From NCBI GenBank assembly GCA_002719295.1, contig PBHC01000013.1, forward strand, positions 1-20,865: DNA of 20,865 bases, in the 5' to 3' direction. Of the stretch, positions 4,981-20,865 are shown piece after piece. Numbering within the stretch: the stretch's first letter is position 1; each line of letters begins with the position of its first letter. This DNA is from Chloroflexota bacterium (lineage in GTDB: Bacteria > Chloroflexota > Dehalococcoidia > Lucifugimonadales > Lucifugimonadaceae). The notes below the pieces were generated by a model. That model was not told the origin of the DNA. It searched no databases and saw only the letters and a program-made list of their open reading frames with translations. The translations under genes and the position numbers were made by a program.

Positions 4981-5676
4981 TTATTTTCTCTTTTTTTTAA
5001 ATTCTTCATATAGTTTATACGTAAGCTCATTAAATGGGTAATATTTTCCTGGAGAGCCTGGATTTTTGATCAGTTCATTTTTTACTAATTCTTCTATTTC
5101 AACTCTCTCTTCCATTATTTTCAAGCATTCATCAAAGATTATATTTGGCAAAACAACAACTCCATCAATATCTCCTAAAATATAATCTCCAGGTCTAACA
5201 AGAATTCCTCCACAATTTATGGGTTGATTTACATAATATGGAAGCATGATTCCAGGTCCTTGTTTTGAGGTAAAAGAATGAGCATATATTGGAAAATTAT
5301 ATTTTTCCATTGCATCAGAATCTCTTACCGAACCATCAGTTATTAACCCAGCTATATTTTTTTGAGCTAGTCTAAGAAATTTTATATCTCCTCCAATCGA
5401 TTCCCAAGGTCCTACAGAAGATGCTACTAGAACTGAATCTTCTGAACATAATTCAAATGCTTGATACTCTGGAGAATTTATTTCTTTAGGTAAATCTTCT
5501 AATAAATCTTCTCTATAAAAAACAAATCCAAGTGTAACAGCTTTACCCACCATTTTCTCTTTTTCAATTAATAATCTAGGCCCCTCTATCATTGATTGAT
5601 TCCAACCTAAAACAGTCATAGCGTCAATGACATTCTGAGAACTAAACCTTTTCAATTTATCAATTTTAGAAATCAT
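4981..5676 (-). CDS. RraA-like / HMG-CHA aldolase family protein
   Basis: GGDI, GLITDGSVRD and CGG..V.PGDYILGDIDGVVVLP family motifs. Confidence 0.88.
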   Translation of the reverse strand: MISKIDKLKRFSSQNVIDAMTVLGWNQSMIEGPRLLIEKEKMVGKAVTLGFVFYREDLLEDLPKEINSPEYQAFELCSEDSVLVASSVGPWESIGGDIKFLRLAQKNIAGLITDGSVRDSDAMEKYNFPIYAHSFTSKQGPGIMLPYYVNQPINCGGILVRPGDYILGDIDGVVVLPNIIFDECLKIMEERVEIEELVKNELIKNPGSPGKYYPFNELTYKLYEEFKKKRK

Positions 5677-8693: not shown

Positions 8694-9704
8694 ATGTCTA
8701 CAAATATAGGAATTAATGGTTTTGGTAGAATCGGAAGGCAGATTCTCAGAATTATTGCTGAAGAAGATTTAGATATAAAAATAGTTGCAATAAATGGAAG
8801 ATCTGAGATAGAAACTTATAAGCATTTACTGAAGTACGATTCTGCTTATGGAAAAATAAAAATAGATATAAAAAACGACAAAGATTTTTTATATTTAGGT
8901 GATAGAAAAATTAGATTTTTCAATGAAAACAATCCTGAAAATATCCCTTGGTCTGAAGAAAATGTAAAAATAGTTATTGAATCAACAGGGAAATTTAATT
9001 CGAAAGAAAAGGCAAGCGCTCATTTAGGCAATGGCGTAAAAAAAGTTTTGCTAACCGCTCCTGGAAAAAATGAAGATGCAACTATTGTATTGGGAGTGAA
9101 TGAGGATATATATGATAATGAAAAACATCATATAATTTCTAATTCTTCATGCACAACAAACTGTTTGGCCCCAATAGTTAAGATTTTAGAGGATAACTAT
9201 AAAATCAAGAGCGGCTTTATGACTACAATTCACTCTTACACAAATGATCAAAATATTTTGGATAATTCACATAAAGATCTAAGAAGAGCAAGAGCTGGAG
9301 CATCAAGCATAATTCCAACAACTACGGGTGCTGCAAAATCAGTGGGGAAAGTAATAAAATCAGTTGAAGGAAAACTAGACGGGATGGCATTCAGGGTTCC
9401 TACTCCAAGTTGTTCTGTAGTTGATTTAAATGTGATTCTTGAAAAAAAAACAAGCTCATTAGAAATAAATAAATTATTTACAGAATACTCTAAAGGTAAA
9501 CTTAAAGGTATTTTAGATGTGACAAATGAAAATTTAGTTTCCATTGATTTTTTAGGTAACAAACACTCTTCAATAATAGACTTGAATTCAACGATGGAAG
9601 TTGGAGATAATATGTTTAAAATTGTTAGCTGGTACGATAATGAGTGGGGATATGCACATAGAACTATTGATCTGGTACAGATATTGTCGACAAAATTAGA
9701 TTAA
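8694..9704 (+). CDS. gap: Type I glyceraldehyde-3-phosphate dehydrogenase (NADP-type signature residues)
   Basis: INGFGRIGR, SCTTNCLAP, DLRRARA, IIPTTTGAA, GMAFRVPT, WYDNEWGY. Confidence 0.97.
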   Translation: MSTNIGINGFGRIGRQILRIIAEEDLDIKIVAINGRSEIETYKHLLKYDSAYGKIKIDIKNDKDFLYLGDRKIRFFNENNPENIPWSEENVKIVIESTGKFNSKEKASAHLGNGVKKVLLTAPGKNEDATIVLGVNEDIYDNEKHHIISNSSCTTNCLAPIVKILEDNYKIKSGFMTTIHSYTNDQNILDNSHKDLRRARAGASSIIPTTTGAAKSVGKVIKSVEGKLDGMAFRVPTPSCSVVDLNVILEKKTSSLEINKLFTEYSKGKLKGILDVTNENLVSIDFLGNKHSSIIDLNSTMEVGDNMFKIVSWYDNEWGYAHRTIDLVQILSTKLD

Positions 9705-9707
9705 ATA

Positions 9708-9736
9708 ATGACTAAATCTAAATAATTTACTATTAT
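9708..9736 (+). promoter_or_regulatory. Putative sigma70 promoter for pdxS-pdxT
   Basis: ATGACT (9708-9713), 17-bp spacer, TATTAT (9731-9736); predicts a start site near 9742-9744. Confidence 0.5.
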
Positions 9737-9742
9737 AGTACA

Positions 9743-9785
9743 TATACGGGTTCGGTGTCGTATAAACAAACAAAAAGCCGAGGAG
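9743..9785 (+). promoter_or_regulatory. Candidate cis-regulatory RNA: H-type pseudoknot overlapping the pdxS Shine-Dalgarno
   Basis: P1 UAUACGG(9743-9749)/UCGUAUA(9758-9764); P2 UUCGGU(9751-9756)/GCCGAG(9777-9782); A-rich linker 9765-9776; SD GAGGAG 9780-9785. Confidence 0.55.
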
Positions 9786-9793
9786 ATAAAAAA

Positions 9794-10726
9794 ATGAGTA
9801 CATTAAAAGACAAAAAATCAAAATCATGGAAAGAACAATCACTTCCTGAAGTAGGAAATTGGAGAGTCAAAGGCGGATTGGCGCAAATGCTTAAAGGAGG
9901 AGTAATAATGGATGTTGTTACCCCTGATGAAGCAAAAATAGCCGAAGATGCTGGAGCTGTTGCAGTAATGGCATTGGAAAGAGTCCCTTCTGACATTAGA
10001 AGAGACGGAGGAGTAGCAAGAGCTTCTGACCCAGAAATGATAACAGGAATTATTGATGCTGTTTCAATTCCAGTTATGGCAAAGGCTAGAATTGGTCACT
10101 TTGCGGAAGCGCAAGTATTAGAAGCACTAGGTGTTGATTACTGTGATGAATCTGAGGTTCTTACTCCAGCAGATAATGAATATCATATTAACAAGTGGGA
10201 ATATAAAATGCCATTTGTTTGTGGAGCAACAAATTTAGGAGAAGCTTTGAGAAGAATTGGTGAAGGAGCTTCAATGATAAGAACAAAAGGAGAAGCTGGC
10301 ACAGGTGATGTTGTTCAAGCAGTAACTCATGCTAGACAGATTCTTTCTGATATAAAAAAAATACAAAGATTAGACGATGAAGAACTAATGACAGAAGCAA
10401 AAAATTTAGGAGCCCCTTACGAATTAGTTTGTGAAGTAAAAAATACAGGAAAACTTCCTGTTGTAAATTTTGCGGCTGGTGGAATTGCAACTCCTGCTGA
10501 TGCAGCATTATTAATGCAAATAGGAGTAGAAGGTGTTTTTGTAGGATCAGGAATTTTCAAGAGTGGGAATCCTTCAAAAATGGCTGATGCAATTGTTCAA
10601 GCAACAACTCACTATGAAGATGCAGATTTGATTGCAGAAATATCTAAAAATTTGGGTGGTGCTATGAAAGGTGATGAAGTTTCTAAATTAGATCCATCAG
10701 AAAGATTAGAAAAAAGAGGTTGGTAA
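9794..10726 (+). CDS. pdxS: Pyridoxal 5'-phosphate synthase lyase subunit
   Basis: [59 protein letters not shown]-terminal RGW. Start moved from GTG 9755 to ATG 9794, which has AGGAG 8 nt upstream. Confidence 0.98.
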
Positions 10727-11304
10727 ATTCCAAAGTAAAAATTGGAGTTCTAGCATTACAAGGTGATTTTGCAGAACATATCGAAGTTCTTGAGAGCTTA
10801 AATATTGAATGTTCATTAGTAAAAAAAACCTCTGAACTAGACAACCTAGATGGTTTAATTATTCCAGGTGGAGAGTCTACTGCCATAAAAAAACTTATAG
10901 ACAGGTATGGATTTGAATTAGCCATTAAAGACAAAGTTGATTCTGGAATGTCTTTATGGGGTACTTGTGCTGGATTAATTTGTATAGCAAATACCCTTAC
11001 AGAATCTGATCCAATTCCTATGAAGTTAATTAATGCTGAAGTTTCTAGAAACTGGTTTGGCAGACAAGTTGATTCATTTGAATCAAATATTGAATTTAAA
11101 GGAATAGAAGAAAAAATAAAAGCTGTTTTTATTAGAGCCCCCATAGTTAAAAATATTTCTAAAAATGTTAAAGTTCTTTCCACTCTCGAAGATGGAACAA
11201 TTGTAGCAATACAAGAAAATAAAATTATGGGGACTTCTTTTCATCCTGAAATTACAGGATCTTCAAAAGTGCATGAGTATTTCATAAATTTAACAAAGGG
11301 GTAA
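10720..11304 (+). CDS. pdxT: Pyridoxal 5'-phosphate synthase glutaminase subunit
   Basis: [43 protein letters not shown]; overlaps the pdxS stop. Confidence 0.98.
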
Positions 11305-11343: not shown

Positions 11344-12930
11344 ATGTTTAAAGAAAATTTAGAAATTTTAGATGATTTAGATTTATTTTTAGATATTTTA
11401 CCGAAAAAAATCACAAAAAATATTGATCAACAAAATCAAGAACTTATAGAAGTGGTCATGGATATAGGAAGACCTCCTGTAATTATTTATTCAAAAAGTA
11501 AAAAGACCTTAGATAAGGAAATTGTTACAGATTTAGACCTTAGCTTTGTTCTTGAAAAATTAGGCCATGTTGGTGATGATAACAGAGCTGGTATAGAAAA
11601 AACTCTTCATAGAATTTCATTGATTCGCAATAGAGGAAGTAAAACAATTGGCTTAACATGTAGAGTTGGAAGAGCAATTTTTGGAAGTATCCAAGTAATA
11701 GAAGATTTTATAGGAAATGGAAAAAGTATTCTAATTATGGGGAAACCAGGAATTGGTAAAACTACAATGTTGAGAGAAATAGCTAGACTATTGGCTGATA
11801 AGGAAGAAAAAAGAGTAGTTGTAATAGATACTTCAAATGAAATCGCAGGAGATGGAGATATCCCTCACCCTGCAATAGGATCTGCTAGAAGAATGCAAGT
11901 AAAAAATACAGACCTTCAACACAATGTTATGATTGAAGCTGTAGAAAATCATATGCCTGAAGTAATAGTTATAGATGAGATTAGCACTGAAAAAGAAGCA
12001 ATGGCATCAAGGACCATTGCAGAAAGAGGTGTTCAGCTAATAGCCACAGCACATGGTAATACATTAGATAATCTTATAATAAACCCTACTCTGAGTGATC
12101 TAATAGGAGGAGTAAAGTCAGTTACTTTAGGAGACATTGAAGCAAGGCGAAGAAAGACTCAAAAAACTGTTCTAGAAAGGGAGTTTGAACCAACTTTTGA
12201 TATTTTAGTTGAAATAATCGATAGAAACGAAGTTGCAGTTCACTTTGATGTAGCAATGGCTGTAGATAAAAAATTAAGAGGAATTTCAACAAATACAGAA
12301 ATAAGAAAAATCTCAAAAGGTAAATTAATTAAATTAAGCGATGAAAAAAATAGTAATGATTTATCAAAGAATAAAAAGAACTTATTAGAGAACAAGCAAA
12401 ATCTAATAGTAGAAGAAAATGAAGAAAAACCAAATCAAAAAAAAATCAATGTTTTTCCATTTGGACTTCAAAAAACCAAATTAAAGAAGTTATCTAAATC
12501 TTTTTTTTCAAACATAAGGATTGTTTCTAAGCCTGAATCAGCTAAAATCATACTAACTACAAAATCTAATTATTCTAAAGAACCTAAACCAAAAATTATA
12601 GAAATGGCAGAAAAAGTAGGAATCCCAATACATCTAATTAAAAAAGGGTCAAGTGATCAAATAACTAGATTCTTAGAAAAAATAAGTGACGAAAAATCTT
12701 CAAAACAAAATTTTGTTGATAATAAACTTGACACAGATAACTCTGAAGCTTTAAATGAAGTTAAGATTGGTATAAAAAAAATCAAAAATGGAGAAAATGA
12801 AATAGAGCTATCCCCTCAAGATTCTTATATCAGAAGAAAGCAACATTTTTTTGCTACAAACGAAGGTATAGGTTCAATTTCTATAGGTGAAGAAAGCAAC
12901 AGAAGGATAGTTCTTAAAAAAAGAAAATAA
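11344..12930 (+). CDS. SpoIIIAA/Ycf45-like AAA ATPase with C-terminal R3H domain
   Basis: Walker A GKPGIGKTT, DTSNEIAGDGDIPHPAIG, EAVENHMPEVIVIDEI, ATAHG; R3H-like LSPQ..YIRRKQH...GEE..RR. Confidence 0.9.
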   Translation: MFKENLEILDDLDLFLDILPKKITKNIDQQNQELIEVVMDIGRPPVIIYSKSKKTLDKEIVTDLDLSFVLEKLGHVGDDNRAGIEKTLHRISLIRNRGSKTIGLTCRVGRAIFGSIQVIEDFIGNGKSILIMGKPGIGKTTMLREIARLLADKEEKRVVVIDTSNEIAGDGDIPHPAIGSARRMQVKNTDLQHNVMIEAVENHMPEVIVIDEISTEKEAMASRTIAERGVQLIATAHGNTLDNLIINPTLSDLIGGVKSVTLGDIEARRRKTQKTVLEREFEPTFDILVEIIDRNEVAVHFDVAMAVDKKLRGISTNTEIRKISKGKLIKLSDEKNSNDLSKNKKNLLENKQNLIVEENEEKPNQKKINVFPFGLQKTKLKKLSKSFFSNIRIVSKPESAKIILTTKSNYSKEPKPKIIEMAEKVGIPIHLIKKGSSDQITRFLEKISDEKSSKQNFVDNKLDTDNSEALNEVKIGIKKIKNGENEIELSPQDSYIRRKQHFFATNEGIGSISIGEESNRRIVLKKRK

Positions 12931-17185: not shown

Positions 17186-17833
17186 TCAATATAATTCAAA
17201 CCTTTTATTAACATTATCTTCAAGCATCATTTCAGATTCTTTTTCCCTTACTTCAATACACTTTTTAAGAGTTTGTTCTGCGATATCTAAAGGAATTCTA
17301 GTTATACCATCTTCATCTGCAATTAATAGATCGCCAGGATCAATTTTCAATTTTGCTATTTCTACTGAAGTTTGTGTTTCTATAAGATTAAATGGTCCAT
17401 GTCCAGGGACTCTTCCTGTACCCCATACAGGCATATTTGCTTTCTTTATTCCGGGAATATCCCTTATTGAACCCTCAGCAACCATACCGACTGCACCTAG
17501 CACTCTTGCCATATTTGCCATTACGTCTCCAATTATAGCTGCACGACCTTTTTCTTTTTCAATGTCTTCAAGAACAACTATCACGGGGAATTCACTGTTC
17601 TTTACATTCCCATATAAATCATTGAAATCTATTTTTGCATTAGGTTCATTTAAAGGTGTAACCTTTCCAGTTACAGCAATCCCTACAACAGGTTCATCAA
17701 AATTATAGGATTTTAATTCAGGAGAAGTATAATCAATATTTGCATCTACATACCCTCTTACTAAAATCATAGCATTTTGAACTGTTGCAGAATCATATTC
17801 CTTGAAATCATTTATTATTTTATTTAAATCCAT
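17186..17833 (-). CDS. RraA-like / HMG-CHA aldolase family protein (second paralog)
   Basis: DSATVQNA, AIIGDVMA, GMVAEGSIRD, PGDLLIADEDGI..IP; AAGGA SD. Confidence 0.9.
   Translation of the reverse strand: MDLNKIINDFKEYDSATVQNAMILVRGYVDANIDYTSPELKSYNFDEPVVGIAVTGKVTPLNEPNAKIDFNDLYGNVKNSEFPVIVVLEDIEKEKGRAAIIGDVMANMARVLGAVGMVAEGSIRDIPGIKKANMPVWGTGRVPGHGPFNLIETQTSVEIAKLKIDPGDLLIADEDGITRIPLDIAEQTLKKCIEVREKESEMMLEDNVNKRFELY

Positions 17834-20044: not shown

Positions 20045-20865
<821 letters not shown>

Follow-up and report, generated by a model that had tools for sequence, protein, structure and literature searches.

The window, the whole 20,865-nt stretch of DNA that was analysed, comes from a 1.27 Mb genome of 30.7% GC. 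The host family belongs to the marine Dehalococcoidia, probably to the SAR202 group, and the organism is taken to be a genome-streamlined SAR202 bacterium in the sense used in the accessible text of PMC11994032. The stretch is present in marine metatranscriptomes. Its forward strand carries gap (8694–9704), which encodes GAPDH, followed by the leader described here, by pdxS (9794–10726), which encodes the 310-residue lyase subunit of PLP synthase, and by pdxT (10720–11304), which encodes the glutaminase subunit. The identification of the gene behind the leader as pdxS, with pdxT next, holds: the product matches NCBIfam PRK04180 at 511 bits against a cut-off of 395. The start of pdxT overlaps the stop of pdxS, an arrangement likely to couple the two genes translationally. 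In most loci of the family gap lies directly 5' of pdxS. On the other side of the operon, 17 of the first 30 loci, mostly those of small genomes, have a 528-residue SpoIIIAA-like ATPase (window 11344–12930) 3' of pdxT, and two further reading frames of the window (4981–5676 and 17186–17833) resemble, by eye, paralogues of the RraA/HMG-aldolase family. PdxS proteins of the family begin with an N-terminal extension of variable length (window 9794–9865), which in many cases contains a conserved Trp-x(6-8)-Pro-Glu-Val-Gly segment; the extension is mostly absent from other families of the order. A coupling of this extension to the RNA motif was rejected, since the extension does not track the motif.

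The leader contains a short element whose sequence and pairings are found where the initial annotation had placed them: P1 joins 9743–9749 to 9758–9764, the loop between these strands runs from 9750 to 9757, GCCGAG occupies 9777–9782 and pdxS opens with ATG at 9794. Relatives redraw the details. P2 had been given six base pairs, but the sixth, U9751–G9782, can form in only 59 of 88 copies, so that the helix has five (9752–9756 with 9777–9781), and L1, drawn as a single nucleotide, becomes two. Read along the forward strand, the 5' strand of P1 (9743–9749) ends in an invariant CGG and is followed by L1 (9750–9751), an invariant G and U that may form one wall of a pocket. The 5' strand of P2, UCGGU (9752–9756), is also invariant, as is the one G of L2 (9757), which sits at the position of the preQ1-I specificity C (cf. 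the accessible text of PMC11625349). The 3' strand of P1 (9758–9764) follows, the closing pair of this helix being G–U in 82 copies and G–C in six. L3 (9765–9776) is A-rich, with three invariant adenines at its end, and receives hairpin inserts in larger genomes. The 3' strand of P2, GCCGR (9777–9781), overlaps the start of the pdxS Shine–Dalgarno (SD) sequence, GAGGAG (9780–9785), of which the 16S tail (window 20049–20060) best reads AGGAG. The view that P2 covers the SD sequence is thus correct in that an overlap exists, but only 1–2 nt are covered once P2 is reduced to five pairs. A promoter-like −35/−10 pair (ATGACT, 17 nt, TATTAT; 9708–9736) predicts a transcription start near 9743. By itself this promoter is weak, with 9 of 12 positions matching, and the window sequence holds five promoter-like sites against 2.9 ± 1.6 in shuffles.

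Nothing in the single sequence sets the element apart from chance; it does stand above chance because it is conserved in relatives. Its nested fold is ordinary (z −0.18), and a pseudoknot descriptor, which was written post hoc, has a single match among the genome's 1170 gene-upstream regions and none in 1000 shuffles. The comparative sample consisted of 152 genomes of the window's family, from which 88 copies of the motif were obtained in 12 genera: 87 within 400 nt upstream of pdxS and one before a pdxS cut by a contig end. In relatives chosen by their PdxS protein, the core CGGGUUCGGUGYCG and a later AAAGCCG recur in 26 of the best 30 loci. The 14-nt core has 121 matches in 99 of the 152 genomes, against three for a backwards control. 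The 3' block accompanies all 87 pdxS-linked cores and two of the 34 others, and examination of all 121 places found complete copies only before pdxS. Extra copies before other genes were accordingly discarded: 32 of the 34 unlinked cores lack the 3' block, one precedes a truncated pdxS and one is chance-like. Among the core matches in the 152 genomes, none lies at a B6 transporter or salvage gene.

The same result is reached from the gene. A pdxS was found in 102 of the 152 genomes, and 86 of the 102 carry the exact core with the AAAGCCG block; of the other 16, 11 belong to genus g5, four come singly from g3, g9, g10 and g18, and the last has its leader off the contig. Within the 12 motif-bearing genera the exact core is present in 86 of 86 assessable leaders, and because pdxS was located independently, the search pattern does not explain this invariance. 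Twenty positions, 13 in the core and seven in the 3' block, never vary among the 88 copies, and the pdxS coding GC of the motif-bearing genomes ranges from 35 to 68%. Among 12 representatives, one per genus, none of 78 four-fold degenerate pdxS sites is invariant. The motif is also carried by 24 of 28 metagenome loci, and 87 distinct sequences are available overall. In a PdxS tree of 61 rows, made up of 37 from the 88 motif copies, 17 from family members without the motif and seven outgroups, at least two changes of the motif are required. The g9, g10 and g18 rows are nested among motif-bearing rows (support 96/87), and the motif has therefore been lost at least once.

Genus g13, with 36 genomes of which many are more than 90% complete, gave neither a pdxS match nor a complete motif; its members (e.g. 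G024, G315 and G365) may be auxotrophic for B6 or rely on a different route. One genome holds a second, distant pdxS (L192, G005:C25) of 59% identity, with one internal stop, on a 4-kb contig and without the motif, perhaps a contamination or a decayed copy. In one motif-less leader of genus g3 (L030, G014), and in this one genome only, a different pseudoknot is possible about 95 nt before the pdxS start. Its crossing helices of 6 and 7 bp enclose a hairpin, the second helix ends beside a GGAGG SD sequence, and it has no Rfam match.

The initial annotation had proposed to test covariation in both helices; it is seen in P1 but not in P2. Of the P1 pairs beyond the core, the first can form in all 88 copies, as G–C in 11 genera and A–U in the window's genus; the second can form in 84 of 88 and occurs as five pair types. 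In an alignment of 24 sequences 95.5% of cells are paired, compared with 85.2 ± 1.2% in shuffled alignments and 36–48% with slid partners, a test that is inflated by related sequences and whose support applies to P1. P2 shows no compensatory change. Its complementarity and the A-tract hold in all 88 copies and four of its pairs never vary; at the fifth, U–A (55 copies) exchanges with U–G (33 copies) and a pyrimidine never occurs on the 3' side. As no P2 pair changes on both sides, we only infer the pseudoknot, and chance alone can produce a complement of 5 bp between two short conserved blocks. The distance between the core and the 3' strand varies from 15 to 161 nt, with hairpins between; among the 71 long spacers, the fold is better than the shuffle mean in 58, and z is below −2 in 23. 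In GC-rich genera P1 continues beyond a bulge, and there are additional hairpins at the 5' end and within L3. The streamlined genera g1 and g6 have no such inserts, and the window therefore holds the minimal form. The additional 5' hairpin, which varies in sequence, stands before P1 in larger genomes (L015, L024, L027, L020 and others) and is absent from the streamlined genera; placed directly after the predicted start site, it is possibly a 5'-end stabilizer.

The element is non-coding, as had been supposed. Translation from GTG 9755 would make it coding, but that codon is in frame in only four of 12 genomes of the genus, which rules this role out. A tRNA T-arm remnant was also ruled out, because the loop is set at 8 nt by the outer pairs that covary and lacks the T-loop A.

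The 3' strand of P2 always lies on the ribosome-binding region, in one of two layouts. In 69 copies the SD sequence follows or overlaps this strand. In 19 copies, from four genera (g12, g4, g8 and g2), GGAG lies inside L3 just 5' of the A-tract, and P2 falls over the spacer and the A of the in-frame AUG. The retention of P2 on the ribosome site through both layouts points to control of translation initiation. Relatives also strengthen the promoter proposed for the window: a −10 hexamer recurs at genus-typical spacing, as exact TATAAT in 66 of 88 copies and with at most one mismatch in 85, and the leader therefore probably starts at or just 5' of P1. Two RNA contigs of one study start near 9745 and 9760, the stretch 9283–9709 being uncovered, and an RNA contig of another study spans 9609–9919, across the gap–pdxS junction; such contigs show the region in RNA libraries, cannot map a start and were given no weight as evidence.

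A comparison across the Dehalococcoidia had been proposed; the element was found in one family only, by pattern searches that need the exact core and would miss diverged cousins. At class level (401 genomes) ten core matches lie outside the family, none with ribosome-site context, and at phylum level (401 genomes) two, both in coding DNA. The core is also missing from pdxS leaders of 24 further families within the order and from those of six genomes in a different order. A hairpin model applied to 151 genomes of the order gave 36–45 bits for the three matching family members and at most 23.8 bits elsewhere; the 22 best outside-family matches lack the element, and with 46 candidates scored per genome weak variants can escape. 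Contigs of all species yielded at least 119 loci, at least 16 of them pdxS leaders of the same kind and 103 judged by eye to lack the context, and three matches in viral sequences are all due to chance. No match to an Rfam family was found. A scan of the window gave no match over the element at E ≤ 5, the 91-nt stretch alone scored best against freshwater-2 in Rfam 15 (16.5 bits, where the gathering score is 49.9), and 14 relatives gave four sub-threshold matches to unrelated families. No RNA motif of pdxS or PLP was found in the literature, where coverage of subscription journals was thin, and the accessible main texts of two motif surveys hold no pdx or pyridox term (PMC11109978, PMC8632094). 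The motif is a real, previously unlisted, family-restricted RNA that is tied only to PLP synthase.

What survives of the first interpretation is a conserved non-coding cis RNA structure of the pdxS leader whose second helix is always on the ribosome-binding region; the pseudoknot part of it comes without compensatory change. On balance, the leader is probably a riboswitch that turns translation off in response to PLP or some other B6 vitamer, a candidate whose ligand is hypothetical. The chances are even for the fuller proposal that it represents the first natural PLP riboswitch class, a pseudoknot of about 40 nt with a pocket that would bind the pyridine cofactor directly and shut off translation of PLP synthase, the window holding a naturally minimal aptamer. 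The element is a conserved and structured cis element, lies upstream of a metabolic gene in the same orientation and includes an expression platform, features expected of strong riboswitch candidates according to the accessible text of PMC8632094. NAD+-II offers a precedent: its P1 and pseudoknot were proposed from 43 sequences without covariation and were later validated (PMC7749635, accessible text). Product sensing is the simplest logic for an OFF switch on a biosynthetic gene; with a single gene context, the ligand is not triangulated. The invariant bases cluster at the would-be stack of P1 on P2, namely the G–U closing pair, the GU of L1, the G of L2, the three adenines and the terminal U–G pair of P2.

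The proposed mechanism may be summarized as follows. (i) The transcript would begin at P1, which would fold at once. (ii) Without ligand, P2 would be short and marginal, the ribosome site free and PdxS made, with PdxT coupled to it. The isolated P2 duplex is worth −5.5 kcal/mol and P1 −5.7 kcal/mol, and after a pseudoknot penalty P2 should be marginal, as expected for a ligand-locked helix. (iii) The ligand would bind at the P1/P2 junction, in a pocket made of the G–U closing pair, both bases of L1 (GU), the G of L2 and the three invariant adenines. (iv) Binding would lock the H-type pseudoknot and bury the first bases of the SD sequence. (v) In the four genera with the second layout, the locked P2 would bury the spacer and the A of AUG instead.

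As proposed, the element would act in the manner of translational preQ1-I and NAD+-II switches and belongs to neither class, the separation from NAD+-II being drawn against its longer form; a shortened 'mini' form has reportedly been described. With preQ1-I (types I–III), as set out in the accessible text of PMC11625349, it shares an A-rich L3 ending in adenines beside P1 and GGUUCG atop P1, and it would share an H-type pseudoknot of about 40 nt, a P2 that buries the first SD bases and translational OFF logic. The ligand-pairing C is missing, as had been recognized: in every one of the 88 copies UG stands directly ahead of the second P1 strand, whereas the rule in the same text is UC or AC (PMC11625349). 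The element further differs in an L1 that begins with G, a P1 that closes mostly with G–U, long hairpin inserts in L3, the absence of an Rfam score and a place at pdxS instead of genes for queuosine synthesis or transport. The preQ1-I junction is described as holding the ligand, with L3 adenines in the minor groove of P1 (PMC11625349, accessible text), and NAD+-II as binding a pyridine ring at a like junction (PMC10085692, accessible text). NAD+-II, found at pnuC, is rare and lineage-restricted, with a pseudoknot over the ribosome site and an A-tract along P1 (PMC7749635, PMC10085692, accessible texts). It also has GUU after the P1 5' strand and G before the 3' strand (PMC10085692, accessible text). 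The element shares these features, the pseudoknot being a proposed one. The ligand of NAD+-II contains a pyridine ring, as does PLP. However, the element has no P1a helix, its pseudoknot sequence is different, it lies at pdxS and not at pnuC or NAD genes, and a G comes right after its A-tract in all 88 copies, so that the C of the site-1 G:C pair is missing. SAM-II and SAM-V are H-type pseudoknots with translational control in marine bacteria, as is proposed here; the element differs from them in lacking a U-rich L1 suited to a major-groove triplex, in having no link to SAM genes and in having no Rfam score.

Regulation of pdxST is usually the task of PdxR (PMC5320631, accessible text), and MocR proteins consist of about 60 plus 350 residues (PMC4944035, accessible text). 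PdxR, a MocR/GntR protein (PMC5320631, accessible text), has the same target genes and the same presumed logic, in which PLP lowers PLP synthesis, but it is a protein acting on DNA at transcription, whereas the element would be an RNA acting on translation. GntR domains occur in 34 of the 152 family genomes and were not found in the window's own genome (81% complete) or in 12 congeners. In motif-bearing genomes the GntR matches above cut-off lie in frames of at most 333 residues, short for PdxR, though contig ends may cut frames. A 434-residue GntR frame in the motif-less genome G014 is, by eye, not MocR-like. PdxR seems to be missing from motif-bearing genomes, and its absence is compatible with other protein regulators. 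One such regulator could act on the leader RNA itself, the pseudoknot being a translational operator bound by PdxS in an autoregulatory loop or by another B6-responsive RNA-binding protein. Ribosomal protein S15 and T4 gene 32 provide examples of pseudoknot operators, and the link to a single gene suits autoregulation. Yet the Trp segment of PdxS is missing in motif-bearing g4 and present in motif-less rows of g5, g9 and g10, the invariant bases are concentrated where the helices meet and in the A-tract, much as in pockets for small molecules, and we know of no RNA binding by PdxS; an operator of this kind is considered unlikely.

A riboswitch for a metabolite other than a B6 vitamer ranks next and is likewise doubtful. 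Its ligand could be a substrate (ribose 5-phosphate, glyceraldehyde 3-phosphate or glutamine) or intermediate of the enzyme, a PLP–amino acid adduct, or another pyridine such as NMN, in which last case the element would be a distant variant of NAD+-II or preQ1-I. The proposed architecture is that of preQ1-I and NAD+-II, the GUU and G flanking the P1 strands are NAD+-II-like (PMC10085692, accessible text), and gap stands just 5' in most family loci. Against this, an OFF switch on a substrate would make little regulatory sense, the motif was never seen at NAD, queuosine or SAM genes, and the two cytosines needed, after the A-tract for NAD+-II site 1 and for preQ1 specificity, are both lacking. 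A ligand-independent structure (5'-end stabilizer, translation damper or thermosensor) or a DNA operator might suit an element at the extreme 5' end of the predicted transcript whose P1 is an inverted repeat in DNA, but is improbable: the former needs no 20 invariant bases across 35–68% GC, and a DNA site would hardly tolerate G–U pairs, an asymmetric centre and a tenfold variation in block spacing.

The B6 riboswitch that is preferred here would occupy a recognized gap. No PLP riboswitch was known to reviews of 2015, 2022 and 2023, as far as their accessible texts go (PMC4371269, PMC10043782, PMC11207198). In the latter two PLP appears as a near-universal coenzyme without a validated riboswitch, and one of them suggests that the gap may reflect that PLP is not RNA-derived (PMC10043782, PMC11207198, accessible texts). 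The question can now be tested with a short synthetic RNA and commercial vitamers. Should the ligand differ, the element would still be a new orphan riboswitch or operator, represented by 87 distinct sequences. If the proposal is correct, the leader would provide an RNA that recognizes a reactive aldehyde cofactor and a small genetic sensor for PLP, and it would explain how B6 synthesis is tuned in abundant, streamlined ocean bacteria with few transcription factors.
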